Below are positions 142 through 49,686 of a stretch of DNA of 64,000 nucleotides, in pieces (position 1 is the stretch's first letter; each line of letters opens with the position of its first letter). Source of the stretch: Bdellovibrionales bacterium (GTDB taxonomy: Bacteria; Bdellovibrionota; Bdellovibrionia; Bdellovibrionales; UBA1609); the NCBI GenBank assembly GCA_965199825.1, contig OZ241329.1, positions 1,632,001 through 1,696,000 on the forward strand, written 5' to 3'. The position numbers and the translations under genes are program-made. The notes beneath the pieces are model-generated. The model saw nothing but the letters and a program-made list of their open reading frames with translations. It made no database searches and had not been told where the DNA came from.

Positions 142-209
142 ACTTTTTTTTTGGATTGGTGTTGGGATTTGAGTTCCTATGGGTTTTTGGCGTTAGCGGT
201 TGAATATTT

Positions 210-935
210 ATGATCAGAAGTCTTTTAGTATTATTTTTTTTTGTATCTGTTAGTTGTTCTAAAAATAAACATTTGCCTTACGTAGTGCACCTGCCGCAGG
301 TTCATTCAACCGATAACGGCCTGTGGGAATCCGTTGAAGACAATCTTTCTTTAACCCAACAAATTATTGAGTCGCAGCTTGAGATACTCCATATCCTTTT
401 ACAACATCAGCCCGCTGCTGTTTTTGTAGAAGCATACATTCTTTTTGTTACCAGGTCTGATCTGTCACACTTTTATCTCCAAGATGTTCAAGAACATTTT
501 AGAGGTGCGATCCCAACAAGCGAGAGCGAACTGACAGAGACTCAAAGACAAATCCTCTATGAATTTGGCGCCCCATCTGTCGCTTTGGCCTTAGGTTCTA
601 TTTCCAAGATACATCCAACATCAGATTACCAATTTGAAGCGAGCATCCTTGCAAGGCTCAAACAGTTAATCTCAGCGCCACAAGCAGAAGGAATTTATTT
701 TTTGGAGGATGCAGAAGTCAAAAACTTGATTTTTGATATGAGAGAACAAAAAGCTTTAGAGAAAATAAAACAGTACGTCGAAATAAATAAACCTACAGCA
801 CAAATATTTCTTATTTATGGAGCTTTACATTACTTTTCTCCGTTCGATAGTAAACTCCCGTTTATCGTATTGAGAAAAATGGGATCTTGCTCTGAACTCC
901 TAGTTTCGAAATTAGGATTTAACAGCAAGTTGTAA
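210..935 (+). CDS. Exported/lipoprotein hypothetical, possible EreA/ChaN/TIKI-fold protein
   Basis: Signal peptide with Cys (VSVSC); motifs LPQVH, VFVE, MRE, IYGALH in the order typical of that superfamily. Confidence 0.6.
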   Translation: MIRSLLVLFFFVSVSCSKNKHLPYVVHLPQVHSTDNGLWESVEDNLSLTQQIIESQLEILHILLQHQPAAVFVEAYILFVTRSDLSHFYLQDVQEHFRGAIPTSESELTETQRQILYEFGAPSVALALGSISKIHPTSDYQFEASILARLKQLISAPQAEGIYFLEDAEVKNLIFDMREQKALEKIKQYVEINKPTAQIFLIYGALHYFSPFDSKLPFIVLRKMGSCSELLVSKLGFNSKL

Positions 936-1039
936 CTTGTGGTGCGTACCAAACCGGTGATGCGGATAAGTTAGAACCTTGCATCGCCTCATTTTCAAAA
1001 TGAGCAAAGTTGCTTAACCGTAAATTGATCCCGCCATGC

Positions 1040-1954
1040 TTATTTGTATTTGCGGTTGATGTTATATTTTCGTGCGAGTTCGATTTGTGGATTTACTTCA
1101 CCAGGAAAATTTTGAGCAAACCAGCTCACGTTTTTTTGAATAATTTTTTCTATTTTGTCATTGAGGTAGCCAGCATCGATTGCTACGTTTGCTTCATTAT
1201 CTAAATATGATTTTCTAATTCCCGGAAGGTCTATTACCGACCCAATATTCAACGCTCTTAATTGCGGAACTCCATCGGCATCAAATGTGTAGATTGGATC
1301 ACCAGAAGATCCGCCTCTTGTAGGACAGTCATGCAAATAAAGATGATCGATCGATTCGCTTCGAAGTCTGCAAGGAGATGTCCAAATTGAACCAAATTTT
1401 TTATCACCTTGGATGCCAGTAAGAGTGACATTTAGCTTCTCTTCGGCTTTTGCTAATTTTATCCAGCCAATCGTTTTAACAACTCCAATACATCTCTCAA
1501 CATGCAAGATAACCCAGTCATTTCCGTTTACATTGTCAGGTCCCCAAAGAATTGGTTTAGCGGCCAATGTGAAGAATTCATTGCTGCCGAGCTGCCCGAT
1601 CGTCAACGTGACCGTGAAATTCTCGGAATCGGCGTCCTCGTCGCCAAATACAGAATGACGAGCGGCTAGAACATGGCATGGAGATATGGTAAATGCTCCA
1701 GACCCCAGTTTATCTTTTTTATGATTAGACAAAATTTGTCGATTGGTTGCGATGCTGCCGATAAATCCCGCGAGAGGATCGTCTCCTATCGGCTCTCGAA
1801 GATCTTGAACAAAAATATTAGCTTTAAGAAAAACAGAATTGAGATCACCAATTGGAGCGTCCCAACCAATGGAAGGGATTGCGTAAAGATTTGAACTCAA
1901 CGTCATGGTCATTAAACAAAATAAGCAAATGTAAACTAATCTGAGATAATTCAT
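1040..1954 (-). CDS. Secreted trypsin-like (V8/S1B-type) serine protease
   Basis: Signal peptide; catalytic triad motifs LAARHS, NDWVIL, GGSSGDP. Confidence 0.85.
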   Translation of the reverse strand: MNYLRLVYICLFCLMTMTLSSNLYAIPSIGWDAPIGDLNSVFLKANIFVQDLREPIGDDPLAGFIGSIATNRQILSNHKKDKLGSGAFTISPCHVLAARHSVFGDEDADSENFTVTLTIGQLGSNEFFTLAAKPILWGPDNVNGNDWVILHVERCIGVVKTIGWIKLAKAEEKLNVTLTGIQGDKKFGSIWTSPCRLRSESIDHLYLHDCPTRGGSSGDPIYTFDADGVPQLRALNIGSVIDLPGIRKSYLDNEANVAIDAGYLNDKIEKIIQKNVSWFAQNFPGEVNPQIELARKYNINRKYK

Positions 1955-2202
1955 ACTAGAGCAGGCACTAGCATTTGCTTCGAAGTAAGGTCAACGATTA
2001 CGTCACCAAACAGTTTTAGTAGATATCGACGATTTATGAGTCGATCTCATGACCCTACGTCCACCAAAGCCACATTGAAAGATTCACTCTTGAACAGCTG
2101 ACTTATTTCATAAATGACTAAGACGATGACGTTCCATTTTATTTTTTGTTTGTCTTGGGGCATGACGATATAAGCGATTTAACAATTTTTTAAAGGTCCG
2201 CT

Positions 2203-3051
2203 ATGTTTTGTGGGAAACAGTTATTCAGTTTTGTAGCGTTAATAGTTTTGTTTAGTTCTGTTACAGCCGTTGCATCGACTCCAGCAGAAATTCTAAATTC
2301 TAACATTGAATTCCTAGAGCTTCCCGCAAACGCCAAGATCGCCTTAATTCGGGCTCATAATAAGCAATTTGGGCTAGGCCTTGCTCAAAGAGAATTCACC
2401 GTCGGTCATGTGGTTCGAACCTCTTCCCTGTATTTTGCTGCAGTGATAGGTAGTCGGCGAGTGATCGCAGAAATTAAAAGCTCATTAAATAAAAAAAATT
2501 TAAGGCTCGGTATGGTGCAGATCGAAATCGATGAATATTTGAAAAATGGAGAGACTCCACCTTTGTTTCAAAATTCAAGAATCGAAAATCTTCCGCTTAC
2601 ACATTCTGATCTAGTGCAACTTAACAATTCATGTATAAAAACGATTGATCAATTTTTTGGCCTTACGACGCAGGAGTTGTTAAAAAATCATTTCGACTCT
2701 CATACTGGAATATTTTTTAGAACCAAATTTCGCTATTATGATCTCTTCGAAAATTATGGCCATATTTTGTTTGACGATGTTGTGCACCGAGCTCAGTTTT
2801 CTCGCACGCATTTATCAGCGAATACGAGTCTTGATGGGGTTCGGATGAGTACTGAGTGTCGCAGATATTCAAAAAGCTTGGGGCTCAATACTGTTGGCGA
2901 TGTCAAAAATCTCCACGATAACTTCTTGCAAAATTCATCTTCATTTTTGCCAAAGAAAGAAAAAACCGAAATTGAATTTTTAGAACTGCGACGCGTGCTG
3001 AATGCTCTTATTCAAACGTCTTGCGAAGCAAACTTATTACCAAATTATTGA
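2203..3051 (+). CDS. Secreted protein with tandem RNA polymerase alpha-CTD-like repeats (paralog 1)
   Basis: Signal peptide; IEFLEL...IAEIKSSLNKKNLRLGM resembles alpha-CTD; collinear with 3758-4624. Confidence 0.7.
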   Translation: MFCGKQLFSFVALIVLFSSVTAVASTPAEILNSNIEFLELPANAKIALIRAHNKQFGLGLAQREFTVGHVVRTSSLYFAAVIGSRRVIAEIKSSLNKKNLRLGMVQIEIDEYLKNGETPPLFQNSRIENLPLTHSDLVQLNNSCIKTIDQFFGLTTQELLKNHFDSHTGIFFRTKFRYYDLFENYGHILFDDVVHRAQFSRTHLSANTSLDGVRMSTECRRYSKSLGLNTVGDVKNLHDNFLQNSSSFLPKKEKTEIEFLELRRVLNALIQTSCEANLLPNY

Positions 3052-3091
3052 ACGCTGATCTGAATATTTGCCCAAAAGTTACGCCACGTGA

Positions 3092-3583
3092 TTAGCCGTA
3101 CCACAATTTCCATTCTGCTTTGAGGTTGCGGTACGACTCACATTCTTCTACCGCCTGCCATGCGACTTTAAAAATTTCTGCGCATTGGGCTTTGATGGGG
3201 TCAGGATCGTTTGCAAGCTTTGAACGTCCATGACTGCCGCTCACACCTTTTAATTCCTGTGGAACGGGGCCATCATATTTTTTTCCGGAGCGATGATTGG
3301 CGTAGCGTCGAGACCGGGTGTAACCCATTTGCAAAAATTTGCGGGCCATGTCCATTCCGGCAAAATCATTCTCAGATTTATACTTGTGAAAGGCTTGTGA
3401 GATTGCTTGAGCCGATTTTTCTGCGAGATCAGGAGTCTTAAATTTCCATAAGGGCAATATTTCTGATTTGTACGGTTCGACGAGCAAAACGCCTTGTTCA
3501 CCAATACCTACGCGGTAGAGCTCTGGACGTTCGCGGAAATTTATTTTTTTAAAATCTTGAGTGTAGTCAAAGGCCATAGCCAT
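3092..3583 (-). CDS. DUF4385 family protein
   Basis: GEQGVLLVEPYKSEILPLWKFKTP and GMDMARKFLQMGYTRSRRYANH motifs. Confidence 0.85.
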   Translation of the reverse strand: MAMAFDYTQDFKKINFRERPELYRVGIGEQGVLLVEPYKSEILPLWKFKTPDLAEKSAQAISQAFHKYKSENDFAGMDMARKFLQMGYTRSRRYANHRSGKKYDGPVPQELKGVSGSHGRSKLANDPDPIKAQCAEIFKVAWQAVEECESYRNLKAEWKLWYG

Positions 3584-3757
3584 CAAGTCTTATGAGTTTT
3601 AGAAGTCCCAATCAATACCTAACACTCACTTTATTTCAGAGGTGTCTAACAGTCTCACCCAACATGTAAGGCAGGCGCTCTCTTAACTACTGCTAAGGCT
3701 TTTTTAAAAGGCATGGATGTTGAATTGATTATCAAAAAATATTTTAATTGAAGAGGT

Positions 3758-4624
3758 TTGTCGGTGGTCTTTGCAAGGAAGTCTTTATTTGTAGTTACCG
3801 CAATTCTTTTATCCACATCCTCAATTACGTTCGCTGACGAGTCTGAGTCTAATGCTTCTGCGAAAAGAATTTTAAATTCTGGAATTGAAATATTGGGTTT
3901 ATCTTCAAGTAATCAGCTCGAACTGGCGCGCGGTTATGAGATTCAATTCCAAAAACCTCTCAAATGGGAGGACTTCAAGGTTTTAAGGGCGGTCCAAATT
4001 TCTTCTGTTTACCTGACTGGAGATACCGGTTCAAAGGGCCCCGTTGCACAAATTAAAAAAGCTCTGAGTAAATATAATCTTCGCCTTGGGATGGTGAAGG
4101 AAGAAATTGATTATTTCAAAGTCCATGGCGATTCTAAGGGTTTCTTTGCTCAATCACGGATTGAATACCTGCCGTTAGAAAAGGATGATTTGGTTCGTCT
4201 CAATGCTGCTAAGGTGATCACGATTGCTCAATTTTTTTCACGGACAGTCCAAGACTTTTTAATTGATCCCACTGATTCTTTTAGTCCCGATTTCAATGCT
4301 AAAAAGCAAGTATTTGGCGAAATTTTTGAATTTTACAAAAAAACCTTGGATGATGATGTGATTCAACGATCATATCGAAAACACAACCAACTATTTCCTG
4401 AAGTCTCTTTAAACCGAGTTCGAATGAGTTCGAGTTTAAGAGGAATTTTAGAAAAATCGAATCTCATTACTGTTGGACCAATTGCTAAGCTTTCCGATGA
4501 AGAAGCGGTGACACTGGTTTCGCATCACCATATGGAGTCCAAAGTCGAAGTTGAATTTTATGAGTTGCGAGAGCATCTCATTCAACTGACTGCCTCAGCA
4601 TGCCAAGGGGCCTTAACTAACTAA
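3758..4624 (+). CDS. Secreted protein with tandem RNA polymerase alpha-CTD-like repeats (paralog 2)
   Basis: TTG start after GAGG; signal peptide; AQIKKALSKYNLRLGM, SRIEYLPL; paralog of 2203-3051. Confidence 0.7.
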   Translation: MSVVFARKSLFVVTAILLSTSSITFADESESNASAKRILNSGIEILGLSSSNQLELARGYEIQFQKPLKWEDFKVLRAVQISSVYLTGDTGSKGPVAQIKKALSKYNLRLGMVKEEIDYFKVHGDSKGFFAQSRIEYLPLEKDDLVRLNAAKVITIAQFFSRTVQDFLIDPTDSFSPDFNAKKQVFGEIFEFYKKTLDDDVIQRSYRKHNQLFPEVSLNRVRMSSSLRGILEKSNLITVGPIAKLSDEEAVTLVSHHHMESKVEVEFYELREHLIQLTASACQGALTN

Positions 4625-4883: not shown

Positions 4884-5497
4884 ATGATCGAAAAAAACTT
4901 TTCTTTGGGCTGACGCACTTTTTTGAAGTGCTGAAATTGATCATTAGGACTTCGATATCCCAATGCGACCACTGCGATGGTGTGTAGGTCGGTTGCATCT
5001 AAGATGCGGTCGTATTCGGCGCCGTTAATACCCTCCATAGGACAGGCATCAACTTTGTTAACCGCTGCAGCATAAAGCATAAATCCCATCGCGATATAGG
5101 CTTGCCGTTTACACCATTCTTGCGATTCAACCGTTTCGGGTTTTTGGGCAATTGAGTTGACCATCACATCGCGAAAATCTTTAAGGACTTCTGTGCCGAC
5201 ACCACGAGTTTTTGAAATGAGCTCGACATAGTTGTCGACAAAACTCTCGTCCATTCTTTTTTCGATCTGAAACACAATCAAATCTGAGCAATCTGTAATT
5301 TGGGATTGATTGTAGGAGACCTCGCGCAATTGTTTTCGGATATCGCGGTCTTCTATCAATATCAAATGATAGGGCTGAAGACCAAATGAGGAGGGTGCGA
5401 GGCGTGCTGCCTCCATGACCGCATCGAGTTTGTCTCGAGAAATTTTTCTGCTGGGATCAAAAGTCTTAACCGCATATCGCCAATTGAGTGCATCCAT
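4880..5497 (-). CDS. NAD(P)H-dependent nitroreductase (NfsB-like)
   Basis: WRYAVKTFD, RLAPSSFGLQP, DACPMEG motifs. Confidence 0.92.
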   Translation of the reverse strand: MDALNWRYAVKTFDPSRKISRDKLDAVMEAARLAPSSFGLQPYHLILIEDRDIRKQLREVSYNQSQITDCSDLIVFQIEKRMDESFVDNYVELISKTRGVGTEVLKDFRDVMVNSIAQKPETVESQEWCKRQAYIAMGFMLYAAAVNKVDACPMEGINGAEYDRILDATDLHTIAVVALGYRSPNDQFQHFKKVRQPKEKFFSII

Positions 5498-5558
5498 GAT
5501 CAAAAGGGTAGTCGTTTAAAAAAAGGGGCGCAAGCAAGTCAGGTGGAGCTGTGCGCTA

Positions 5559-6986
5559 TCAGGGTAGGCCAACGTCACCAGACCGTCTTAAAGACGACAA
5601 ATCCCTAAATGATTTGGTTGGTATTTGCTCAGGGGTGGTGCTGTGTTTAATGATCATCAAGCCACAATTTTGTTTTTCACATCGTGAGGCATAGCCTTGA
5701 GCAAAAAACTTTCCTTTATAATAAACCTTCATCCCGATTTGCTGATTGTTAAAGGCCTCATTCAAAGTCGACATCAGCAACCCTTCACTCGGCACAACCG
5801 GATCAAGCACAATACTTAAATTTCCGTTGTTCGCAAAAGCGGTTCGACTGAGCAAGATTCGGCTCTCATCTTTGGTTTCATCAATATAAAGCGAAAAGGT
5901 TTTTGGATTTTGGGGGCCGTGATGAGGATAAACACTTTGGCTTGCTCTGCCCGAGATACAGGGACGAGTCGAGGGCTGCCCATCACAAAAAGTTACAAGC
6001 TCGCGAGGGGGCACAGAGATCAATTGAAAGTAGGCCATTTCAATTCCCGCCGTGGTATCTGCAGATTCAAAAATCAAAAACGTCTCGCCCTTATTCCAGA
6101 GTGAGCATGGGATATTTCCTGTAGCCGGATTATTTGTAGGATCACATACATTTGTTGCATCACTTAAAAAGCGATCAAACATCTGTTGGTCTTTTATTCC
6201 TCGACTCATGGTAAACACAAAACTGTGTGAGCCATTGCCCAGAACTGGCCGGTAGGGTCCGCGCAAAAATGGATATCCGCCAAGCCCTGGACGAAATGTC
6301 TGGGGCGCAGCCGGTGTTGGCTCAGCTGGAATTTCGGGTCGCGGCTTTGGATTTCGTGGCTGCGGCGACACCGTGATTGAAAATCCATCATCCTGGGATT
6401 CGACCGGTTTTTGAGGTGTTTGCGGTGTGATCACAATTTCGGCTGGCTTTGCTTGTCGCGGTTTTTGGGGTTCGGGGGGCATAAGGCGAACCGTTGGTGG
6501 CCGCGGCTCAGTCGGAGGCAGTGGCATCGCTTCGATCGGAATTGGCTGACTTGGCTCAATCGCACGAGGGGTCAGAGTCAGTGTGCGCGGCGCCTCGGGT
6601 GGCGGCGTCGGAAGAGCCAAAGCTCGTGGCACGGTGAGCGAAGGTAGAGTGGGCTTGGGTGCTTCAACTCGTGGAGTAATTTCGGGCAATGGGCGTTCGA
6701 CAACAGGCGGTGTTGGCTTAAGCGGAGGCAGAGGTGGCCTTGCCGCAGGAACCGGTTTTACGGGCTCAACAAGTGGGATGCGAGGAGGCGTCGGTTTTTC
6801 AACGATCGGCGAGGGCGATCTTTCTGGCCTTGCTGGAGGTGCTTCGATGGATTGACGTGGAGTGCTTCGCGGCTGTTCCACAGAACGGTGTTCACCCCAC
6901 GCTGGGGGCGCACTGTTTTTATAGTCGTCGAGTTCATCGAAGACATTGGCTTGGGCAAAAAGAGAGAGAAGTAAAATAAGATGCAC
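5559..6986 (-). CDS. Secreted protein with long Pro-rich stalk and Cys-containing C-terminal domain
   Basis: Signal peptide (probable GTG at 6986), about 200-aa Pro/Thr/Glu-rich region, globular C-terminus. Confidence 0.75.
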   Translation of the reverse strand: MHLILLLSLFAQANVFDELDDYKNSAPPAWGEHRSVEQPRSTPRQSIEAPPARPERSPSPIVEKPTPPRIPLVEPVKPVPAARPPLPPLKPTPPVVERPLPEITPRVEAPKPTLPSLTVPRALALPTPPPEAPRTLTLTPRAIEPSQPIPIEAMPLPPTEPRPPTVRLMPPEPQKPRQAKPAEIVITPQTPQKPVESQDDGFSITVSPQPRNPKPRPEIPAEPTPAAPQTFRPGLGGYPFLRGPYRPVLGNGSHSFVFTMSRGIKDQQMFDRFLSDATNVCDPTNNPATGNIPCSLWNKGETFLIFESADTTAGIEMAYFQLISVPPRELVTFCDGQPSTRPCISGRASQSVYPHHGPQNPKTFSLYIDETKDESRILLSRTAFANNGNLSIVLDPVVPSEGLLMSTLNEAFNNQQIGMKVYYKGKFFAQGYASRCEKQNCGLMIIKHSTTPEQIPTKSFRDLSSLRRSGDVGLP

Positions 6987-6997
6987 AACACACAAAT

Positions 6998-7013
6998 TGC
7001 AACCGCGGTGCCC
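6998..7013 (-). promoter_or_regulatory. Putative sigma-54 (-24/-12) promoter
   Basis: Minus strand GGCACCGCGGTTGCA (GG-N10-GC), close to TGGCACG-N4-TTGCW. Confidence 0.6.
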
Positions 7014-7100
7014 CTCTCAGTGCGCGATAAATAACAATCGAGCAAGACTTCGATGCTCGGCACTTTGACACCAAGGTACAACTTTCATAACTTCAAATTT

Positions 7101-7637
7101 ATGAATCCATGGCACGACGTCATCATAGGTCCTGATGCTCCAAATATTTTAAACGCGGTCATTGAAATCCCAAAGGGATCAAAAGCAAAGTATGAACTCG
7201 ATAAAGAAACGGGCTTACTGAGGCTTGATCGATTTCTTTACAGCTCGGTTCATTATCCCTGCAATTACGGTTTTATTCCCCAAACCTATTGCGAGGATCA
7301 TGATCCCCTAGATATTTTGGTGTTGGGTCAAGAGCCAGTTGTGCCTTTGTGTTTGGTGCGAGCCAAACCCATTGGTGTGATGAAGATGATCGATCACGGT
7401 GAGGCCGATGACAAAATCATTGCGGTCCATGCTGATGATCCAGAGTATGCCCACTTTAATTGTATCGATGAATTAGCCCCTCATCGCATGATTGAGGTCC
7501 AAAGATTTTTTGAGGATTATAAGATTTTAGAAAACAAACATGTGGTGATCGAAAAGTTTTTTAAAAGCACCGAGGCGTATCAAATTATCCAAAGTGCGAT
7601 CGATCTGTACAACAAAACTTTTAAACTAAAAAAGTAG
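7101..7637 (+). CDS. ppa: Inorganic pyrophosphatase (family I)
   Basis: [42 protein letters not shown]. Confidence 0.96.
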
Positions 7638-8339
7638 AGTTCCGGTCACACCAACCATCCCGTTCGAATCGAGCTGCGGCAATATCGAAAACGCTTTGCC
7701 ATTCGAATCTGGCATATGGTGTTGGCTATAACTGTGACCAACAAGATAGCCTAAAGTTGAACCAAAAATCACATCCGACAAATGATGTCGACCCGACGCC
7801 ATCCGACTGACCGCGGTCAACGCGGTTAAAAAATAAAAAGGTGCAGCGGTTTCAAAACCATAAAACTGATCGATCACTGCAGCAGTGGTCATCAAAGTGG
7901 ACGTGTGTCCGGAGGGAAATGAATAGTGATCTCCCCCATCGGGCCGTTCATGAGGAATCGCTAATTTTAACACGGTAGTGTAGCCAAGATTTGCCACCAG
8001 GGCCTCGAGCTGAGCTTCACCAAATTGCAGAGAATGGTCATCATCGTTGAGATACGCATGTAAGAGTGCGGCAGCTCCAACGCCGACGCCGATAATCCCT
8101 GTGCCCAAAAATTGATTGCCAATATTCTCTAATCCACCAAGACGATTGCGATTAGAAAAATACTGATCCACTGAGGAGTCCAACAAAATTAAACTTAAAC
8201 CCGTAGCCGACAGGCCATAAACAAAAACTTCAAGATTCTGTTTGGCAAATAAATCGATGCTGCCTTTTTTCATATGTTCAAACGGATTGTAGGCGAGGGC
8301 CTGAGATCCAATAAAAAATAAAACTAAAAATCGCATCAC
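7626..8339 (-). CDS. PAP2 superfamily phosphatase
   Basis: [22 protein letters not shown] motifs. Confidence 0.9.
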
Positions 8340-8343
8340 GTTT

Positions 8344-9174
8344 TTAAAAACTCCAGTGGGCCGACATAATGGGCTCGCCCTCGTAAGAGGTTGTCGGCAT
8401 GATCAAAGGCCAAGCCGAATTTAATTTTGATTTTGGATGATTGCGACGAGTGATCACTTTTGAAAAGCTATAGCTCAATGCAATTGCAATCGGCATATCA
8501 CTCCACCAGTGAATTCCGGTTCCAACAAGTCCCATCGAAACCCAACCCAACGCAGGATAAGCAATATAAGGCATCCAAGTTTGTTCAGGATAATTGTCCA
8601 TAATGATAAAGAGGCTTACAGAAAACGACTGCAGATGACCCGACGGCATCGCATCGTACTCTTGAGTGTTATGAGAGTAATCCACCTGACTCGGAAGCAA
8701 ACGCCAACGGCCTGTTCGCGAGGTGCTCTTGAAAGGACTTTGTCGACCTGTGGTGTGCTTCATCAATTGAACAATAATGCCGCTCGACAGAATTCCCTCA
8801 CCAATTTGATAGGCGGTTCTTAATGCTCGTCGATCAAAAATTCCGGCAGCCAAAAATCCACCGATCGCCACATACTGAAAGGGCCCTTTACTAAAGCTCT
8901 CACCCGCATCGACGATATCGTGAAAGTTATCGTTTGTGTCATATTGGCGTTTTTCAGCCTGCCAAGTTTCATAATCGGTCATGGTCATCACCCCGGTGAT
9001 CGCGGTGAGGCTTAAGAGTGACGGGATATTTTGTTTGGTAAATGTGTCTTGAGCCCAGTCGCTAAGATTGCTCGGAATGTTGGTGATGATTTTGTAGAAC
9101 TTGGGCCGCTCCACCTCTTCACTTGCTTGGACCGAAAAATGAAAGACGAATAAAATAACTGCTAAACTTTTCAT
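8344..9174 (-). CDS. PAP2 superfamily phosphatase (divergent)
   Basis: KHTTGRQSP, MPSGH, HWWSD; ATGA-coupled to upstream gene. Confidence 0.85.
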   Translation of the reverse strand: MKSLAVILFVFHFSVQASEEVERPKFYKIITNIPSNLSDWAQDTFTKQNIPSLLSLTAITGVMTMTDYETWQAEKRQYDTNDNFHDIVDAGESFSKGPFQYVAIGGFLAAGIFDRRALRTAYQIGEGILSSGIIVQLMKHTTGRQSPFKSTSRTGRWRLLPSQVDYSHNTQEYDAMPSGHLQSFSVSLFIIMDNYPEQTWMPYIAYPALGWVSMGLVGTGIHWWSDMPIAIALSYSFSKVITRRNHPKSKLNSAWPLIMPTTSYEGEPIMSAHWSF

Positions 9175-9770
9175 AATAAAACTCCCAGCCGCACAAGCGC
9201 ACCCCAAAGTGTGTTTGGTCCTGCGGTCGAATAGTAGGGCCCAACCTCAATGAGAGTATGTGCAACCCCAAAAAAATCAAATCCATATCCAAATCCTCCG
9301 CGCACCATCACTCCGGTATCATTGGTGGAGGAATTTGGAATCAAGGAGGTTTGGGTAACAATTTGTAAACTCTCAACCCCTAGATCAAAATGATAATAAT
9401 AACCTGAGCCAATAGTAGGTTTTAAAAAATTCATATAGGTGAAAAGCCCAGAATAGGAACGAATCGCCAGCCTGCGCTGATCGCGTTGATCGCGACCGAA
9501 TTCTTCGAGCAGTGCGCTTGCCAAAAATCCAAAAAGTTTTTGATCGTCTAAGCGGTAGTAGGCCCCTGGCAGCTCAAGCAGTCCACCCGAGATACTCCAC
9601 AATCCGTCGGCATGGGCCTCGCCAATTTTTTGTTGCAGGTTTGAATCATGCTGAGGATAGGGCGAAAAACCGGTGCCCACATAAAAATACCACTGATCTT
9701 GAACCCCTTCTTCGGCAGAGACAGCTTGGTTAAACAAACCGAGCGCCAAAATGATAATCAAAACTGGCAT
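9171..9770 (-). CDS. Outer-membrane beta-barrel-like protein
   Basis: Signal peptide, aromatic/Gly-rich amphipathic strands; AAGGA RBS before ATG 9770. Confidence 0.65.
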   Translation of the reverse strand: MPVLIIILALGLFNQAVSAEEGVQDQWYFYVGTGFSPYPQHDSNLQQKIGEAHADGLWSISGGLLELPGAYYRLDDQKLFGFLASALLEEFGRDQRDQRRLAIRSYSGLFTYMNFLKPTIGSGYYYHFDLGVESLQIVTQTSLIPNSSTNDTGVMVRGGFGYGFDFFGVAHTLIEVGPYYSTAGPNTLWGALVRLGVLL

Positions 9771-9852
9771 TTTTTCCTTTACCTTATTCATTCTTTTAGA
9801 GAAGTCGCGACAGTGCGATACTCCAGCAATGAATTTTGAATTTGATTTCGCC

Positions 9853-10455
9853 ATGATTCATCTCAAAAAGAAAGTTTTCTGTTTCGCTAGCACGCTGCTT
9901 TTTTGCCAAGTGATTTGTGCTCAAGAAATGTGCTTGAGCCAACTTGCCAAAGGCCGACTCAGAAATTTTACTTCTGAGCATATCACTGCAGCGACCGCAA
10001 TTTTGAATGACCCTGAAGTGTCACACTATCTGCATGATCATCCCGCAAATGAAATACCCGATGAATTGGCAAAAATGATTCGCCATGAAGACGACTCGTT
10101 GATCAAAGGATATTGGTATCAGGACGAGCTGGTTGCCTTAGTGGGTCTGCAGCACGATAAAAATCAACTGAGATTTATCGCAAGAACCGAATCCGAAAAA
10201 CAGTATCTGATGATGTGGTTTGCGGTTAAGCCTTCACAACAAGGCCGAGGTTTCGGAACAGGTGCAACAAGAGCTCTGCTCGAATTCTTGTTCGACCACA
10301 CGGACCTTCCGGGAGTGTTTGCTTGTTTCAACAAAGAAAATGTTTTCTCTCGAAATTTAGTGGCAAGAGTTGGATTTTCGCTCACCACTCGCATTGGAGC
10401 CAGCGGATTGATCTGCGCTCACCTTAGCCGCGAGCGATTTTTAAATAAACATTAA
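9853..10455 (+). CDS. Signal-peptide-bearing GNAT (RimJ/RimL-like) acetyltransferase
   Basis: QQGRGFGT acetyl-CoA motif, N..S...RVGF motif; N-terminal signal peptide. Confidence 0.8.
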   Translation: MIHLKKKVFCFASTLLFCQVICAQEMCLSQLAKGRLRNFTSEHITAATAILNDPEVSHYLHDHPANEIPDELAKMIRHEDDSLIKGYWYQDELVALVGLQHDKNQLRFIARTESEKQYLMMWFAVKPSQQGRGFGTGATRALLEFLFDHTDLPGVFACFNKENVFSRNLVARVGFSLTTRIGASGLICAHLSRERFLNKH

Positions 10456-11981
10456 TTGTTTGGGCAAGCTAGACCGTGAAGAAGAGCTTCGCGTTGGCCT
10501 GGCACCTGGGATCGAGCAGCAACTTGCAACGCGGTGATTGCGGCTTCATATTTGTCTTTAATATCTTTGCAGACCGCTTTATTTTTTTGGACTTGTTTTG
10601 CTAGCAACTCGCCAACTTCTTTGTGTGTATTCGAATTGCTAGAGGCCGCGTTATCGCGCCATGCGTTTTTAAAGCTATCTAAATTTTGATTCAGCATGAG
10701 TGTTTCAAAACGTTCGTTTTCTTGTGGAGTTTGGCAATTTTCAACATAGGCATTGATCTCGCTAACCTTATAAACATAATTTGTAGATTCAAGTAATTTT
10801 GCATTATCACATTTTTTATAATAGCGCGTGCTCGGTTTAATTTGCGGCGGTTGCGAATTTGCTAATTCCAAAACAGCAATTCCGTTGAAGGGTGCAGTTT
10901 CTTTGGGCGCAGCCGGGGCCGCGTCCGCTTTTAAAATAGGCGATTTTGGAGCTTGTGGTTTTTCTACCGGCGTATTGGCAACCGGTGTGGTGAGCTCAGG
11001 AGCTGGACGGGGAACGGGCACGCTACTCTCATTTATCGATGCAGCCGAAGGGACCGGGACTGAGCCCCCGCCTAAATTCGTTTTGGCGGCGGCTGCTGGG
11101 GGTGGAGTGGCCGAGGCTGTTCGTGGGGCTGGTGAGCTCGCAGTTCTTGGTGAAGTTGCACGCGCAGTTCTTACAGTCGGTCTTACCGCAGCTCCAGAGC
11201 CGCGGCTTCTTGCGTGTGAAGTTCTCGCCGGAGTTGATTTGGGTGCAGCCAGTGGAGTTGAACTTGAAGCTCCCGAACCATAACAATCCTTGCCGCCACA
11301 GGCGACGGTGCAGCCTTCGATATATTTTTCTAAATCTTCTTTTGTTTGAAGCGACATCGCGGTTTTGAATTCGGGCATATAATATTGGCAATAACCATTC
11401 GTGGCGAGACGATGAAGTTCATCGTATTCATCATAGGTTTTTTCGACTTGGTACTGACTGTAGTTACTTATCATAGCATAGCTTTCAGGTTGGAGAGCCA
11501 ACCCACTGCCGCCGTACTGTGCGGCATCGCCGCTCGTTTCATTTGTTCCAAAACTATTTTGATATTTCGATTCTAAAGAAGATTGCGCCTTCTTTTTTCG
11601 CAATTGCTCTCCTAACGACCTTTCAACACCGGTAAAATAATTTTTAAATTGTTCTGTAAAACTACAGTAATCAGATTTGATCCCCGAACCACTCGAAGCA
11701 CAGGCAGAGCTTGCAAATCCGCTGCGCACACTGGTAGTTCCACCAGGCTTTTCTTGGCAATTGGCAACCACTACAGCCCAACGTGTACGAAGGTTTGTAA
11801 ATGTGATTCCCCATTCTACAGGGTGAGATTCAAAGCAAGATGTGGGCGGTGCTTTTGCTGGTGCTATAGGGGTTGAACGTCGGCTTGAACTTGATGTGTC
11901 ATCGTGACATCGGCCTGTTTTTGGATCTCGGTAGCAAGAGTCATCAGCGAAAATAGAAAAACATAAAATTAAAAAAATCAT
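10452..11981 (-). CDS. Secreted Cys-rich protein with central Ala/Pro/Thr/Ser linker
   Basis: Long ORF, short signal peptide, two Cys-containing domains separated by a low-complexity linker. Confidence 0.75.
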   Translation of the reverse strand: MIFLILCFSIFADDSCYRDPKTGRCHDDTSSSSRRSTPIAPAKAPPTSCFESHPVEWGITFTNLRTRWAVVVANCQEKPGGTTSVRSGFASSACASSGSGIKSDYCSFTEQFKNYFTGVERSLGEQLRKKKAQSSLESKYQNSFGTNETSGDAAQYGGSGLALQPESYAMISNYSQYQVEKTYDEYDELHRLATNGYCQYYMPEFKTAMSLQTKEDLEKYIEGCTVACGGKDCYGSGASSSTPLAAPKSTPARTSHARSRGSGAAVRPTVRTARATSPRTASSPAPRTASATPPPAAAAKTNLGGGSVPVPSAASINESSVPVPRPAPELTTPVANTPVEKPQAPKSPILKADAAPAAPKETAPFNGIAVLELANSQPPQIKPSTRYYKKCDNAKLLESTNYVYKVSEINAYVENCQTPQENERFETLMLNQNLDSFKNAWRDNAASSNSNTHKEVGELLAKQVQKNKAVCKDIKDKYEAAITALQVAARSQVPGQREALLHGLACPNN

Positions 11982-12167
11982 ATCTTCATGATCAAGCATT
12001 TTGGCCCAAATAAAAATGGCAGGATAAAAGGCCTAGACCTAGGTCGCTCGTGAAATGATCCGATTTTCGGTCAGCATTCCCGGACCACAAGATTGAAAGA
12101 GTCATGTCATTCTTGTTTGATCAATTACCAAAAATTGCATTTCCCAAAATCAATAAAGGAGATTTCA

Positions 12168-16829: not shown

Positions 16830-17775
16830 GTCTTACTTTCCGATTAGTGAATTCTATAAAAAACGTTTTGGCGAAAAGGTCTATAAAATTCCTGTGAGCA
16901 CCGCCGGAAGTTGTCCCAACCGTGAAGGTCTTAAAGGAATGAAGACCTGTAATTTTTGTGATGTTTGGGGCTCGGCGGCCTATCCTGAATCGCGCGAACT
17001 TTCGCTCGTTGATCAGATTAAAAAAACAAGAGCCACAATCCAGGCTCATACCAATGCCAAAAAATTTTTGGTTTACTTTCAAGCCTACACAAACACATTT
17101 CAAAAATCTAAAATTCTCAAAAACCAATTTGAAGTCGCTAAACAATTTTCGGATGTGATTGGTTTTGTTGTTGGCACGAGGCCAGACTGTTTATCAGATG
17201 CGGTTTTAGAATTGTGGAATGAAACATCCCAATCTCATTTTGTCGCGGTCGAAATGGGATTACAGAGTTTTTCGGAATCCCAACTGGTCTGGATGAGGCG
17301 CGGTCATACCGCCCAAAAATGTGTGGAGGCTCTTTATCGCCTTCATCGTGACACACCAAAAGTGGATTTAGGAATTCATCTTATTTTTGGTCTGCCGGGT
17401 GAGACCAATCAGGATATCGTTGAGGCCGCAAAAAAGACCAATGATTTGCCAATCACAAATATAAAACTTCATCATCTTCATGTGCTCGAAAAAACGCCAC
17501 TCGAGCAAGATTATCGCAGAGGATTATTTACGCCGCTGGATCTTAAAGAGTATGCCGAGCGTGTCGCCTTGTTTTTACAACATTTACGAAAAGACATTGC
17601 GGTTCATCGCTTATCGGCCCTTTCAAGACGGAGTGACGAATTGATCGCACCCGATTGGACCGCAAAAAAAATGGCGATCTATCAAACTATTTTGGATGAG
17701 TTAAAGGTTCAGAAAGCTTATCAAGGGCAGCTTTATCAAGACGAATCTCATTGCCCTTCATCTCAGTATTCCTAA
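16828..17775 (+). CDS. TIGR01212 (YhcC/YtqA/MnmL-like) radical SAM protein
   Basis: FGEKVYKI, CPNR...CNFC, YFQAYTNT, GTRPDC, RGH, HLIFGLPGE. Confidence 0.9.
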   Translation: MSYFPISEFYKKRFGEKVYKIPVSTAGSCPNREGLKGMKTCNFCDVWGSAAYPESRELSLVDQIKKTRATIQAHTNAKKFLVYFQAYTNTFQKSKILKNQFEVAKQFSDVIGFVVGTRPDCLSDAVLELWNETSQSHFVAVEMGLQSFSESQLVWMRRGHTAQKCVEALYRLHRDTPKVDLGIHLIFGLPGETNQDIVEAAKKTNDLPITNIKLHHLHVLEKTPLEQDYRRGLFTPLDLKEYAERVALFLQHLRKDIAVHRLSALSRRSDELIAPDWTAKKMAIYQTILDELKVQKAYQGQLYQDESHCPSSQYS

Positions 17776-18679
17776 AATCAGGGATTAGATTCCCATGGGG
17801 AAATCCGACAAAATCTTTTTTTATTTTTGTTAGCACCGAAATAAATTCTCGATTGGAATCCCTACAGATTGCTTGGCGCACTTTGCCGTTTTCAAAAAGA
17901 GTGTCTCCGATCACGCGGGCATGGTGCTCAGTAGAATTTTTTAATATTTTACTGCCAATCAAATACGAGTGGGTGAGGCTGCGATTTTTGATTGGCATAT
18001 AGGATTCAAGTTCAATCAACCAATCTGGCCGATCAGGAAAAAACCGATCATGGCAAAAATCGGTTTTTGAATGAATCAACAGCGGGCAGTCTTGCTGATG
18101 AGTGCAAGGCGCCAGTATTGAATAACCAGACTCGATCAATTGTTTTCTCCAGGCCATCAGCCGTCGGCTTTGATCGGTCTGTGAGGGTTCGATAATCAAA
18201 AAGTGGTTAGATCGCAAATGGGGTGTTTCGATTTCATTGATGCTGTAAGAAAAAATTCCGCAGCCCGAGTTGGGGATTTTTTTTAAGCGTTGTGGCCTTT
18301 TGATATTAAAAAAATCGCAAAGATCATTGTGCAGTTCAAAGGCGGTGTTAGATTTTTCAATCACTCCATAATCACAGTCAATTCCGGATTCAAACAAAGC
18401 CAGTTGAAAGTTGCCAGCACCACTCCCAACTTCAAAAACCTGATCAAAAATCTGAGGGGGAGTTTCTTTGAGCACATGCTGAATGCGCAAATAATTATAT
18501 GGAAAAAAATAAGCCAAGTACGCCGCGGGTGAACGGTCCCATGGAGTCGTCTTTATGGGTTGTTGAAAATAAGTCGAGAGCTGAATCACTTGCTGGCTCA
18601 GTTTTTTAAAATCCCTTGGCAGTTCAATACCAAAATTTTTGAGTTTTAAAAAAATCCAATCTGACAATTTGGGATTCAT
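17687..18679 (-). CDS. Rsm22-like SAM-dependent methyltransferase
   Basis: AYLAYFFP, EVGSGAG, IIEP, APCTHQQDCPL...FCH motifs. Confidence 0.75.
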   Translation of the reverse strand: MNPKLSDWIFLKLKNFGIELPRDFKKLSQQVIQLSTYFQQPIKTTPWDRSPAAYLAYFFPYNYLRIQHVLKETPPQIFDQVFEVGSGAGNFQLALFESGIDCDYGVIEKSNTAFELHNDLCDFFNIKRPQRLKKIPNSGCGIFSYSINEIETPHLRSNHFLIIEPSQTDQSRRLMAWRKQLIESGYSILAPCTHQQDCPLLIHSKTDFCHDRFFPDRPDWLIELESYMPIKNRSLTHSYLIGSKILKNSTEHHARVIGDTLFENGKVRQAICRDSNREFISVLTKIKKDFVGFPHGNLIPDFRNTEMKGNEIRLDKAALDKLSEPLTHPK

Positions 18680-19638
18680 TTGATGCTTTCCAATGCAGTC
18701 TCAAGCACGGTGTTCACCGAGAGTTCGCGCATATCGTGAGTGGCAGTGGGAGGGGCTTCAACAACTTGGACGAAAGCGCCGAGGGGACGCCATCTTTTAG
18801 CACGATGAGCTCGCACAGGACTGTAAAGCCCAAGTGTTGGAACTCCCAATGAGGCTGCGATATGAACAACCCCGGTACTTGGCGCAATCACCAACGCGCT
18901 CTCTGCATAAAGGGCCAAGAGCTCTTGGGTGTTTAAGCGATCATCCAACCATGTAATTTGATCTTCACTTTTCAAGGCTATTCTTAAAGGCTCCAAATAT
19001 TTTTCATCCATCTTTGTGCCCGTAATTATAATTTGTTTATATTTTTTGAGCTTAAGGATCAGCTGAGCATAAAAATCGGTTGGCCAATTGAGCGCAGAGC
19101 CGCCCATCCCAGGGTGCACCACGATAAAACTTTTGGGTTGATGACCCCATGGTTTGTTTAAAACAGTTGGCGCCGCAAGCTTGAGAGGATGGGGCATCGG
19201 GAGTGAAGGTTTAATTTGCTGACACAGTTCGAGATTGTATTCCAACTCGTGTTTTTCACTTAAGTGTCTTTTTTGGCGCACACCGCGATTATAAAATAGG
19301 TAAGAGTGCCACTGACTCAAGCGGCCCGCCCGCAAGGGAACTCGGCTTAAAAATAAAATCAACGACACCCACCACGGCGCATGAAACACCACCGCCCCTT
19401 GAGGGCGAATCATTCGGATAGCCTTAAACATGCGATAGGCCTGCGAAAGTGAAAAGGCTTTTTGAAATTCGATGCCTGCCCGAATGGGCCGGGCATGATC
19501 GAGAACAAATCCAGTGCCATTGGTTATAAACCAATGCACCTTTTCGTCTTTGAAATCTTGGTCACAGGGGAGAGTTAAAATAAGATCGCCAATGCGGTCC
19601 ATCCGCACAAAAATAAATGCCATAGCCAACAATGACAT
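18676..19638 (-). CDS. Glycosyltransferase family 9 (LPS heptosyltransferase-like)
   Basis: RMDRIGDLILTLP, VHPG, STGVVHIAASLGVPT. Confidence 0.9.
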   Translation of the reverse strand: MSLLAMAFIFVRMDRIGDLILTLPCDQDFKDEKVHWFITNGTGFVLDHARPIRAGIEFQKAFSLSQAYRMFKAIRMIRPQGAVVFHAPWWVSLILFLSRVPLRAGRLSQWHSYLFYNRGVRQKRHLSEKHELEYNLELCQQIKPSLPMPHPLKLAAPTVLNKPWGHQPKSFIVVHPGMGGSALNWPTDFYAQLILKLKKYKQIIITGTKMDEKYLEPLRIALKSEDQITWLDDRLNTQELLALYAESALVIAPSTGVVHIAASLGVPTLGLYSPVRAHRAKRWRPLGAFVQVVEAPPTATHDMRELSVNTVLETALESIK

Positions 19639-24285: not shown

Positions 24286-25482
24286 ATGATCTCACTTCGT
24301 CAATGGTTGAAAATTTTAAATTGTCCAGCACGGGTTGGTGGTCGACTTCGCTATGCTTCGCGCGCGCGATATGAGTCAGGGGACTTCGAGCTCTACGGTC
24401 AAGGCTGTGTGGTCAAAATTAAATCTCACGGTGTTCAATCAAAAGCCAGCGATGGGGATTTGATTTTGCTTGGCGTGGATCGGCCACCAGTTGCAGGCAT
24501 CATTCATTTATCCGGGTTAGCAGAGATCGAGATTGTGACAAAAACCTCAACTCCACCACAGATTTTTAGCAACGCCGAAATTCAAAAAAAGTGGTTTCAT
24601 TTTTTGCGTGATATCGAAGAGATTTTTGATGATCTTGGCCTATTGAGAGTAACAACACCGACACGAGTCAAATCCAATGGTCTTGAGCCAAGCATCGAGC
24701 CGATTGCCAGCGAAGATCTTTTTTTACCAACAAGTCCAGAGCTCGCCTTAAAAAAAATTTTGAGTCATGATTTTACCGATATCTATGAAATCCGCGCCTG
24801 CTTTCGGAAAGAAACCCCAACGCCACATCACTTAAGTGAATTTACGATGATCGAATGGTACAGGGGCTTTGCCGATCTCAGAAAAATTGAAAACGACATT
24901 GAAGTTTTGATTCAAAAACTTTTCAGTAAAAATTGGCATCATGATAAACGTCCACTACAAAAAATGACAATGGCCGAGGTCTTTCAAGACGCGCTTAATT
25001 TTGAACTCAAAAGTTCAACCACCCAATTAGAAATACAAAATTGTTTACGCGAGCACGGCCAACATTTCCAAACGGATTGGAACTTTGACGACAGTTTTAA
25101 CGCCTTATTTGTGACCCTTGTGGAACCCTATCTTAAAAACAAAGGCCCATTGCTTATAGGTCAATTTCCACCTTCGCAAGCGGCGTTGGCTCGAATTAAT
25201 CAGGACGGTTGGGCCGAGCGTGTGGAACTCTATTGGAATGGCTTAGAGCTTGCAAATGGCTATGACGAACTTGTGGATCCGGTAGAACAGCGAGTTCGAT
25301 TTAATAAAGATATACAAAAACGAAAGCTCAACCATAAAATTGATTTACCCATAGATGAAGACTTTTTGGCGGCACTCACTGCAGGCTTACCTCCAACGGC
25401 CGGGATCGCACTCGGTCTTGAGCGCTTATTTATGGCCTGTGTCCAACTTTCAAATATTCAGGATCTTAAATTTTTTAATTAA
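24286..25482 (+). CDS. epmA: EF-P lysine aminoacylase (GenX/PoxA) with N-terminal extension
   Basis: LPTSPELALKK, CFRKE...HLSEFTMIEWYR, QAALAR, ELANGYDEL, GIALGLERL. Confidence 0.88.
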   Translation: MISLRQWLKILNCPARVGGRLRYASRARYESGDFELYGQGCVVKIKSHGVQSKASDGDLILLGVDRPPVAGIIHLSGLAEIEIVTKTSTPPQIFSNAEIQKKWFHFLRDIEEIFDDLGLLRVTTPTRVKSNGLEPSIEPIASEDLFLPTSPELALKKILSHDFTDIYEIRACFRKETPTPHHLSEFTMIEWYRGFADLRKIENDIEVLIQKLFSKNWHHDKRPLQKMTMAEVFQDALNFELKSSTTQLEIQNCLREHGQHFQTDWNFDDSFNALFVTLVEPYLKNKGPLLIGQFPPSQAALARINQDGWAERVELYWNGLELANGYDELVDPVEQRVRFNKDIQKRKLNHKIDLPIDEDFLAALTAGLPPTAGIALGLERLFMACVQLSNIQDLKFFN

Positions 25483-26071
25483 AATTATTTTGTCGATTGG
25501 TTCTTTTATAAGTGTGGCCGATCCTGTTACGAAAAGGTGCACCGCTTTTTTAGCTCTGGGAGATCCGATCACCATTGCAATGATCAAGGCCAATAAAATT
25601 GCACCGCATATTGAAAGTTTTAATCAACTTGAAGTATTGGCCCATTTTCTTAAAGATCCCGTGACTCAAGCCGAGTTGATAGAGCCGGCCAACAAATTTC
25701 AGATCACTACCTTATCCCAAGCATTGAATGTCCATCCGCTCGTTGCTCAAAATCGAATTCGCCATACCAAAGCCAATTTGCTTAAAAACGCCACAATTGT
25801 AGTTAATGTATTTAGCTCTACTCCGATCACACAACTTGATGATTTCTATATTCATGGCGAACTGTATGAAGTGTCCCAATCTTTAAAAGTGGGCCTTCGG
25901 ATTGAGCAACTTTTATCAACCATCAACACCGATTCTTGGATCAATTCTAAAAGTCGTATTGATCAACGACTCAAACTCAAAACCGAATTGATGGCCCAAA
26001 ATAAATTCGACTCCTCTTTTGCAAAACTCTTTAATGATGTGGTCGTTGCGGTTTTAAACAATTCCAATTAA
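25355..26071 (+). CDS. Hypothetical protein, probably exported (true start likely near 25480)
   Basis: Open frame fills the gap between epmA and M48; hydrophobic stretch then KRCTAFL. Confidence 0.55.
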   Translation: MKTFWRHSLQAYLQRPGSHSVLSAYLWPVSNFQIFRILNFLIKIILSIGSFISVADPVTKRCTAFLALGDPITIAMIKANKIAPHIESFNQLEVLAHFLKDPVTQAELIEPANKFQITTLSQALNVHPLVAQNRIRHTKANLLKNATIVVNVFSSTPITQLDDFYIHGELYEVSQSLKVGLRIEQLLSTINTDSWINSKSRIDQRLKLKTELMAQNKFDSSFAKLFNDVVVAVLNNSN

Positions 26072-48864: not shown

Positions 48865-49686
48865 TTGGATGCTAGTAAAGGGGGATTTGGGGTGGTTGTT
48901 ATTTTTGTTTTGATGCAGATGTTCGCATTTGCTGACTGTGAACACATTTTGAATTCAAACATCTTGTGGTCTGCGCTCAACAAACCAAAAATGATTCCTC
49001 AAAAACCGGTAGGCTCTTTCACAAAAAAATACGCCCATCACGAATTTTTTGATCAAGATCAAATCCCGTGGACTTTCATCAAAGACGACCGTTACTTGGA
49101 TCTCAATACCGCATCGAGTGTGATCTCATCTCTTATTTATTCGCACTTTCAAATTTTAACTCCGATCACCACTCGCTACATGAATTATGCGGCGATTCGT
49201 TCTTTAGAAACCAATCTCCCTCTTGGTCGCCTTGATCATCTCGACACTCAGAAAGTTCGTGGGCTTATTTTTGTGGCGGCATTTTTACAAGATCTTAAGC
49301 GGCTTGAAAACGACCAAAGTAATCTTCTACTCAAACAAAATGAGTTTATAGCTTTAGATTTTAGCCAAACACTAGGTGCTGGCAAAAATGGTTTTCATAA
49401 AAAAGGTCGAATTATAAGTGGTGCGGTAGGGGGTTATCCGGCGTTTAAATCAATGGCTGAAGCTTTAAACCAAATAGATTGGACACTGCTTGATAAAAAT
49501 CATCCTTGGAAAAATCTGAACGAGGAGGATTATGATTTTGCTCTGCGCGGGTTTGACAGTTTAAGCGACCAAGATATCCAGGCTTACGTCGAGGCGGCCG
49601 AGTACTCAGAGCCCCTAGATGCTCAATATATGATCGAAAAACTGATTCATAATCGAGATATTTTTAAACGCGACCTTCGTCGATAG
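48865..49686 (+). CDS. Secreted hypothetical protein, possible HipA/PI-kinase-like fold
   Basis: Signal peptide; AFLQD.KR....SNLLL...IALDFS. Confidence 0.55.
   Translation: MDASKGGFGVVVIFVLMQMFAFADCEHILNSNILWSALNKPKMIPQKPVGSFTKKYAHHEFFDQDQIPWTFIKDDRYLDLNTASSVISSLIYSHFQILTPITTRYMNYAAIRSLETNLPLGRLDHLDTQKVRGLIFVAAFLQDLKRLENDQSNLLLKQNEFIALDFSQTLGAGKNGFHKKGRIISGAVGGYPAFKSMAEALNQIDWTLLDKNHPWKNLNEEDYDFALRGFDSLSDQDIQAYVEAAEYSEPLDAQYMIEKLIHNRDIFKRDLRR

Follow-up and report, generated by a model that had tools for sequence, protein, structure and literature searches.

Predicted Exported Proteins Built of alphaCTD-Like Repeats in a Bdellovibrionales Bacterium

The window analyzed here, a stretch of 64,000 nucleotides from a Bdellovibrionales bacterium (assembly GCA_965199825.1, contig OZ241329.1, positions 1,632,001 to 1,696,000), encodes two intact paralogues, ORF1 and ORF2. 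Each combines a Sec-type signal peptide pattern, three units that resemble the RNA polymerase alpha subunit's C-terminal domain (alphaCTD) and a terminal cysteine (Cys) tag. The alphaCTD is a cytoplasmic hub that contacts DNA, sigma, activators, and NusA. Its appearance in predicted exported proteins is provisionally a new arrangement, a judgment that rests on architecture: no description of exported alphaCTD proteins was found in the literature outside subscription papers and supplements, and nothing on a Bdellovibrio alphaCTD, an alphaCTD-repeat family or the Cys tag was found in titles and the starts of abstracts. Tentatively, we propose that ORF1 and ORF2 are exported via Sec and, once inside a prey or host cell, serve as multivalent mimics of the alphaCTD and so upset transcription there, a reading to which we give somewhat less than an even chance.

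Architecture and Fold of the Two Paralogues

ORF1 (P0001; 2203-3051, + strand) is a verified open frame of 282 aa. ORF2 (P0004, + strand) is open from a TTG at 3758 to 4624; the GTG at 3764 is the more likely start, giving a protein of 286 aa, because AGAGG lies 7 nt upstream and the database protein begins there. The two are 37-38% identical over their full length (E 7e-51). In both, residues 1-24 (2203-2274 in ORF1, 3764-3835 in ORF2) are predicted to form a Sec/signal peptidase I signal peptide: the n-region is basic, the h-region hydrophobic and the c-region carries small residues at -3/-1 (AVA/S and TFA/D), with no lipobox. Residues 1-23 of ORF1 have a predicted local distance difference test score (pLDDT) below 50. 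This agrees with an earlier sequence-only reading of the window, in which two paralogues with signal peptides had been predicted. At the C-terminus, ORF1 has a C-x-x-x-L tag (Cys274, 3022-3036) that matches the looser tag pattern only, and ORF2 a C-x-x-A-L tag (Cys280, 4601-4615) with the sole Cys of the mature protein.

The repeats lie at approximately residues 27-104 (2281-2514), 122-187 (2566-2763), and 206-270 (2818-3012) of ORF1 and, colinear with these, at approximately residues 36-110, 129-194, and 212-276 of ORF2 (3869-4591); fold predictions refer to ORF1. AlphaFold2 with a 4-row alignment yields three compact helical alphaCTD-like units (pLDDT 80.1, predicted template modeling score 0.68). 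The remaining four models scored only 56-63, and repeats 2 and 3 folded separately reached a pLDDT of 84.6. The top seven Foldseek rows for the ORF1 model are all alphaCTD chains (E 0.11-0.5). In VIA, alphaCTD chains head the ranking for each repeat, with narrow margins for repeats 2 and 3. Repeat 1, the best-kept unit despite an insertion of ~11 aa behind the first helix, reaches Z 9.1 to 4mex_A and 8.3 to 1z3e_B (root-mean-square deviation 2.0 over 66 residues), and the best row other than alphaCTD 4.8. For repeats 2 and 3, alphaCTD chains take the top four rows, with Z 7.0 to both 1z3e_B and 4mex_A for repeat 2, and 6.2 to 8w9z_A and 5.9 to 2max for the most diverged repeat 3. In VIA, a Z under 8 can reflect merely a shared arrangement.

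The three segments are real structural units, though scarcely alike in sequence. Among 2000 shuffles, the similarity inside ORF1 was reached in 42 (repeats 1/2), 198 (repeats 1/3), and 120 (repeats 2/3) cases, and that inside ORF2 in 315-721. The sequence-only reading had called the segments similar, which holds for their structure rather than their letters.

Homology to the RpoA C-Terminal Domain

Neither ORF is recognized by PF03118, the alphaCTD family, in a direct comparison or in a genome-wide scan at E<=10, and none of the scores reached the curated cut-off of 23.8 bits. Searches of both against Pfam, PHROGs, NCBIfam, PDB sequences, and the ESM Atlas gave no direct match, BFVD gave none below E 0.001, and word-index searches returned ORF1 and ORF2 alone. 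The alpha N-terminal domain (alphaNTD; PF01000, PF01193) was not found in either ORF.

A search of 1.84 billion representatives recovered four proteins, namely ORF1, ORF2, P0005, and P0006. A 4-row profile searched against 400 other genomes of the phylum added one homologue, P0007 of genome G287 (E 1.8e-12), which contains PF03118 (E 1.5e-16, 60.3 bits); P0005 matches the family at E 0.002 (18.2 bits). Furthermore, a 46-row profile of other genomes' repeats and six RpoA CTDs, which holds no member of the ORF1/ORF2 subfamily, ranked RpoA, ORF2 (E 0.0049), and ORF1 (E 0.01) at the top of 20,414 six-frame ORFs. Repeat positions 1, 2, and 3 align to an independent alphaCTD-repeat profile with HHalign probabilities of 94, 87, and 74. 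Homology to the RpoA CTD is thus detectable transitively via P0007, by independent profile ranking and by HHalign, suggesting that ORF1 and ORF2 likely descend from the alphaCTD. The alphaCTD likeness proposed in the sequence-only reading is therefore borne out by agreement of fold, profile ranking and the PF03118-positive homologue. Of the checks proposed with it, AlphaFold2 and Foldseek ranked alphaCTD chains first, refuting the absence of such a fold; the Pfam check gave no direct match to either ORF but is passed by P0007.

Some candidates were rejected. A match in G019 (E 0.007) was discarded for its 3 stops. Most secondary PF03118 matches (E 1e-4 to 0.1) are partial, lie in frames of 480-740 aa that probably encode helix-hairpin-helix (HhH) enzymes, and were left uncounted. 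None of five weak secondary matches, nor G154, passed the RpoA profile, and a G036 protein is of uncertain origin because its HHH_5 score exceeds its PF03118 score. A metagenome scan with P0005 found no locus.

Recurrence in the Order and Capture From rpoA

Among 384 genomes of the order, 354 have a PF03118 match and 20 more than one at E<=1e-4. Five of these 20 (G021, G637, G432, G538, and G599) were dropped as second rpoA copies or fragments. Hence, at least 15 of 384 genomes have a non-RpoA match, a lower bound because the PF03118 criterion overlooks the window's own proteins. Fourteen are in the window's family (14/108; genera g3, g18, g19, and g34) and one is in family f2 (1/26).

Adding G659 and G079, three proteins from metagenomes and ORF1 and ORF2 to the PF03118 finds gives a set of 38 non-RpoA alphaCTD proteins with 1 to 5+ repeats. 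An N-terminal hydrophobic stretch is present in 32 of the 38 (the script gave 33, and L054 was removed since its stretch is internal). All 32 carry a C-x-x-x-[FLMIV] tag, which directly follows the signal peptide in 22 and sits C-terminally in 10. For three proteins the script first matched within the signal peptide itself, and a second match was taken by eye. Of the remaining six proteins, five are truncated, whether by the end of a contig or locus, an N-run or a break, and L103 has no hydrophobic stretch.

In a tree of 86 rows and 65 columns with rough bootstrap values, the repeats of g3, g18, and g19 cluster mainly by protein or genome, as might be expected after recent amplification. Most repeats of the ORF1/ORF2 subfamily cluster by position (repeat 1, 94/92; repeat 2, 96/92; repeat 3, 92/77), as they would in an old, fixed array, and repeats 3-4 of P0006 and the later repeats of P0007 and P0009 sit outside the positional groups. 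Four more homologues, which come from other lineages or from metagenomes, have the repeat order of ORF1 and ORF2.

The G628 protein (L101 415-1899) starts with a signal peptide, ends in a Cys tag and includes a near-intact copy of the CTD of that genome's RpoA. Its CTD is identical to that of its own RpoA at 66 of 75 positions vs. 53-62 for ten others, and the protein nests among RpoAs in the tree (100/98). By identity and tree position, this shows a recent, separate capture of the rpoA CTD. The alphaCTD-repeat family thus arose more than once in Bdellovibrionales. Several broken copies are present in relatives. In the window's genome, an intact rpoA sits elsewhere, with its closest named matches in Bdellovibrionales (79-84% identity). 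The RpoA frames of the small-genome genera g18 and g19 span 443-815 aa (L096-L099, L120, and the g18 rows), and those that were read have long low-complexity C-terminal tails.

The Cys-Tagged Class and Its Cargo

The tag found in 32/32 alphaCTD proteins contrasts with a similar pattern in ~17% (75/439) of the genome's signal-peptide proteins. The stricter C-x-x-h-h pattern occurs in these 439 predicted non-lipoprotein signal-peptide proteins 26 times N-terminally, 26 times C-terminally, never at both ends and twice in a mid-protein segment; in the 1,369 other proteins it occurs in 44 cases N-terminally, in 40 C-terminally and in 18 mid-protein. These counts are approximate because the gene caller, a crude codon-score script, overlooked ORF1 and labels some cytoplasmic proteins, such as CarB, as signal-peptide proteins. 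The tag is modestly represented in 400 kb of G017 (6/54).

Proteins without a Pfam family make up 44/52 of the tagged set vs. 33/78 untagged neighbors (p 1e-6). Names could be assigned to nine tagged proteins. CarB is a false signal call; the others are a subtilase, a C13 peptidase and six with cytoplasm-type domains, i.e., a peptide deformylase, a UbiB/ABC1 kinase, an OlsB-like acyltransferase, a MaoC and an AAA protein, and one resembling A1 of phage T5. Cytoplasm-type enzymes are thus 6/8 of the identifiable tagged signal-peptide proteins of the genome. The untagged set, read by eye, consists largely of envelope families and false signal calls. Activities of this kind require the ATP, acyl donors, nascent chains or DNA of a cytoplasm. 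The tag may therefore route its cargo into a cytoplasm, and the share of cytoplasm-type proteins makes that of the prey the likely destination. A tagged G079 protein of 1357 aa (L038 4074-8144) has a signal peptide and an SF2 (DEAD/ResIII) helicase joined to an alphaCTD.

Other members of the class were observed in passing. The window encodes five further tagged signal-peptide proteins, at 210-935, 9751-10455, 25355-26071, and 48865-49686 (all +) and at 54745-55704 (-); a GNAT acetyltransferase whose start resembles a signal peptide is encoded at 9751-10455, and the other four have no family. In a pair of HAD-like and T5 A1-like proteins (L075 11260-14330, corresponding to G000:C1 1229868-1232941), both partners have a terminal Cys tag, and the T5 A1-like one matches PHROG 1745. 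Directly upstream of the alphaCTD-repeat gene P0008 of G033 is a gene for another tagged signal-peptide protein (L037 2323-3078), by eye resembling a kinase.

Proposed Action in a Target Cell

Target-cell action is plausible because the host belongs to a predatory order and because ORF1 and ORF2 are members of an exported class, marked by the Cys tag, in which cytoplasm-type domains are frequent. In the proposed sequence of events, an rpoA CTD was captured into a signal-peptide and tag cassette, as shown by the identity and tree position of the near-intact copy in one relative. Tandem amplification followed, recent in some genera and, according to a tree of modest support, old and fixed at three positions in the ORF1/ORF2 subfamily. 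After Sec export, onward secretion would probably use the type II system of the genome, which encodes a gsp-like cluster with secretin and GspK, and the proteins may then enter the prey cytoplasm, as the other cargo of the tagged class suggests.

For the final step, we distinguish two cases on the basis of the contact surfaces. The 265, 287, and 261 determinants are defined in PMC10853779, with PMC1874639 as a further source. We scored a DNA-binding set (265, 268, 294, 296, 298, 299, and 302), an activator, CRP-contact set (285-289, 315, 317, and 318), and a sigma region 4 set (257-259 and 261), with the genome's own RpoA, which has 7/7 of the 265 set, as mapping reference. In 43 repeats of other genomes, R265 is retained in 19/41, G296 in 24/42, and K298 in 20/43, as against E261 in 2/36, D258 in 4/33, and position 287 in 1/43; the rows are related rather than independent, and the counts are descriptive. 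Younger members, in which the DNA-binding face is partly preserved, probably attach to AT-rich DNA through avidity. For ORF1 and ORF2, the likelier partner would be a protein of the prey's transcription or nucleoid machinery, contacted by a surface other than the textbook ones, since their DNA-binding face is lost and their charge is near neutral (mature net charge ~+3 and -2, isoelectric point 8.7 and 6.4).

Several observations weigh against the proposed action. In the six window repeats, where alignment of the hairpin region is uncertain, 0-2/7 residues of the 265 set are found per repeat, with R265, N268, and G296 in 0/6 and N294 in one; the 287 set is identical to the genome's own RpoA at 0-3/8 positions, and the 261 set at 0-1/4, with position 258 acidic in 5/6. 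Foldseek E-values are weak (0.11-0.6 overall), and the lead of alphaCTD over RAD51C-NTD (5.8) and SAM (5.6) for repeats 2 and 3 is ~1 Z or less. The cargo argument depends on 8 proteins, with 44 of the 52 tagged ones lacking a family, the sorting role of the tag is putative, and in 400 kb sampled from a g56 genome the tag is unenriched (2/74). Family f10 has no non-RpoA PF03118 match in 182 genomes, and the best-studied predators may therefore be without the family. The host is uncultured and its predatory habit is deduced from taxonomy. Changes of ORF2 in a related strain, among the matches listed and in low-depth contigs, are 3 synonymous and 4 non-synonymous.

With the determinants eroded and the charge near neutral, canonical binding of UP elements or CRP appears unlikely for ORF1 and ORF2 and more likely for younger members of the family. 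Hence, the notion of exported alphaCTD mimics in a target cell stays plausible, and the mechanisms named for it in the sequence-only reading lose ground: UP-element binding suits the younger members better, and titration of activators such as CRP is hard to reconcile with the 287 set.

Alternative Explanations

The eroded contact surfaces could also indicate that the alphaCTD fold was put to new use as an all-purpose, small helical (SAM/HhH-like) scaffold, exported to bind an unrelated periplasmic, surface or prey target with no role in transcription. All three determinants are eroded, yet 9-12 of 13 core positions are still hydrophobic, residues invariant in the subfamily sit mainly in core and linkers, the repeats have diverged by position, and SAM chains reach VIA Z 5.0-5.6, under alphaCTD; no SAM Pfam match was found in either ORF. 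However, the independent, repeated capture of one domain from rpoA suggests selection on an alphaCTD-type activity, at least initially, as does the better retention of R265, G296, and K298 than of other surface residues in the 43 younger repeats. We consider the scaffold explanation unlikely, though to be taken seriously.

The same retention pattern, set against that of E261 and A287, would suit exported DNA-binding proteins of the HhH class whose task is to catch or retain prey DNA, either in the periplasm or at the feeding junction, for digestion and uptake. ComEA is an exported protein with DNA-binding modules of the HhH class. The tagged class includes the T5 A1-like protein and the helicase fusion, and no crossing of the prey inner membrane would be necessary. 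ComEA represents a separate HhH lineage, however, and ORF1 and ORF2 lack the hairpin glycine (G296 equivalent) and R265 in 6/6 repeats and have no basic face. A role of this kind is rather improbable for them.

The patchy distribution, the broken copies in relatives, the many orphans among tagged proteins and the low-GC stretch adjoining a tRNA gene raise the question of whether ORF1 and ORF2 are by-products of a cassette that catches gene fragments at random, most copies decaying and these two doing little. The conservation of two intact paralogues at 38% identity, the repeat order common to four further homologues and the confident fold argue against this, as do changes in a related strain that are mostly synonymous in mature ORF1 (7 synonymous and 3 non-synonymous, with 3 further non-synonymous changes at the start of the signal peptide, among the matches listed and in low-depth contigs), and we regard the idea as quite improbable.

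That the proteins are unexported and remain in the cell that makes them, tethered to its membrane as alphaCTD decoys or regulators, would fit the cytoplasmic location of alphaCTD partners and the stand-alone alphaCTD proteins of phages and Bacillota, which need no export. This is very improbable because an N-terminus with a basic n-region, a short h-region and a site of A-x-A type would leave the mature protein on the far side of the membrane from the cytoplasm, and 32/32 such N-termini accompany the exported-class tag.

Comparison With Known Systems

Like the RpoA CTD (PF03118; PDB 4MEX, 1Z3E, and 3N4M), ORF1 and ORF2 have the repeat fold, the hydrophobic core and, in repeat 1, a terminal L-x-L-G-M motif, and homologues of theirs exceed the Pfam cut-off. 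Unlike RpoA, they lack the alphaNTD, are under Pfam detection with all three determinants eroded, and consist of three tandem copies with a predicted signal peptide and a Cys tag. The domain is likewise freed from RpoA in stand-alone alphaCTDs of phages and Bacillota (UniProt phage entries named 'RNA polymerase, alpha subunit, C-terminal'; NCBIfam NF005841/PRK07758; ESM Atlas clusters), some of which are long enough for repeats. These are annotation-level families compared by description, in which no export signals or function are reported.

The BREX protein PglW reuses an alphaCTD-like helical domain in a conflict protein beside nucleic-acid-binding modules, and its NCBIfam model NF033442 matches P0007 (E 4e-10). 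It is a large kinase/winged helix-turn-helix (wHTH)/AAA defense protein, and no signal peptide is described in the accessible part of the source (PMC12839542). The kinase, wHTH, and AAA domains were not found in the 282-286 aa of ORF1 and ORF2. Secreted predation proteins of Bdellovibrio, i.e., peptidoglycan enzymes and proteases, share with ORF1 and ORF2 a Sec signal peptide, here predicted, and a genome that encodes a type II secretion system; those named in the accessible text of PMC12622784 and PMC13689555 are envelope-modifying or hydrolytic, and that text mentions no transcription-subunit mimic among them and states no terminal Cys tag.

Genomic Surroundings

Between the paralogues, on the opposite strand, lies a DUF4385 gene (3092-3586, -; PF14328, E 6.9e-63), as the sequence-only reading had stated. 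It shows no sign of membership in the alphaCTD-repeat system: its GC content is 45%, as compared to 38-39% for ORF1 and ORF2 and 43.8% for the chromosome, and it was not found beside the alphaCTD-repeat homologue in locus L039. A tRNA-Leu(TAG) gene overlaps the start of the window and ends at position 66. It is followed by a low-GC stretch (~200-4600) with four exported-protein genes, one of them for a trypsin-like protease (1040-1954, -), and is possibly an inserted island. Promoter and terminator scans did no better than chance. Downstream, 5559-6995 (-) and 10452-11999 (-) encode exported-looking proteins with long Pro/Ala/Thr-rich segments, the first without a Pfam family. Elsewhere in the assembly, the small contig G000:C5 has long frames (5039-12148 and 17503-19356) with identical C-terminal ends and a non-bacterial look, and may be foreign to the genome.

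Implications for Predator Biology

Taken further, Bdellovibrionales might repeatedly have made an exported weapon out of part of the RNA polymerase that they themselves use. Tag-routed tandem alphaCTD arrays would occupy UP-like DNA or absorb alphaCTD partners and so silence prey transcription, and the tag would mark an undescribed route into the prey cytoplasm, shared by kinases, acyltransferases, deformylases, helicases, and nucleases. This wider proposal is possible but somewhat doubtful. Tagged, putatively secreted alphaCTD captures are candidates for two open questions about predators: by what means they stop transcription in the prey, and by what route their proteins enter its cytoplasm. 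Since the family ranges from a near-intact fresh capture to fully eroded forms, both its activity and its evolution are testable.

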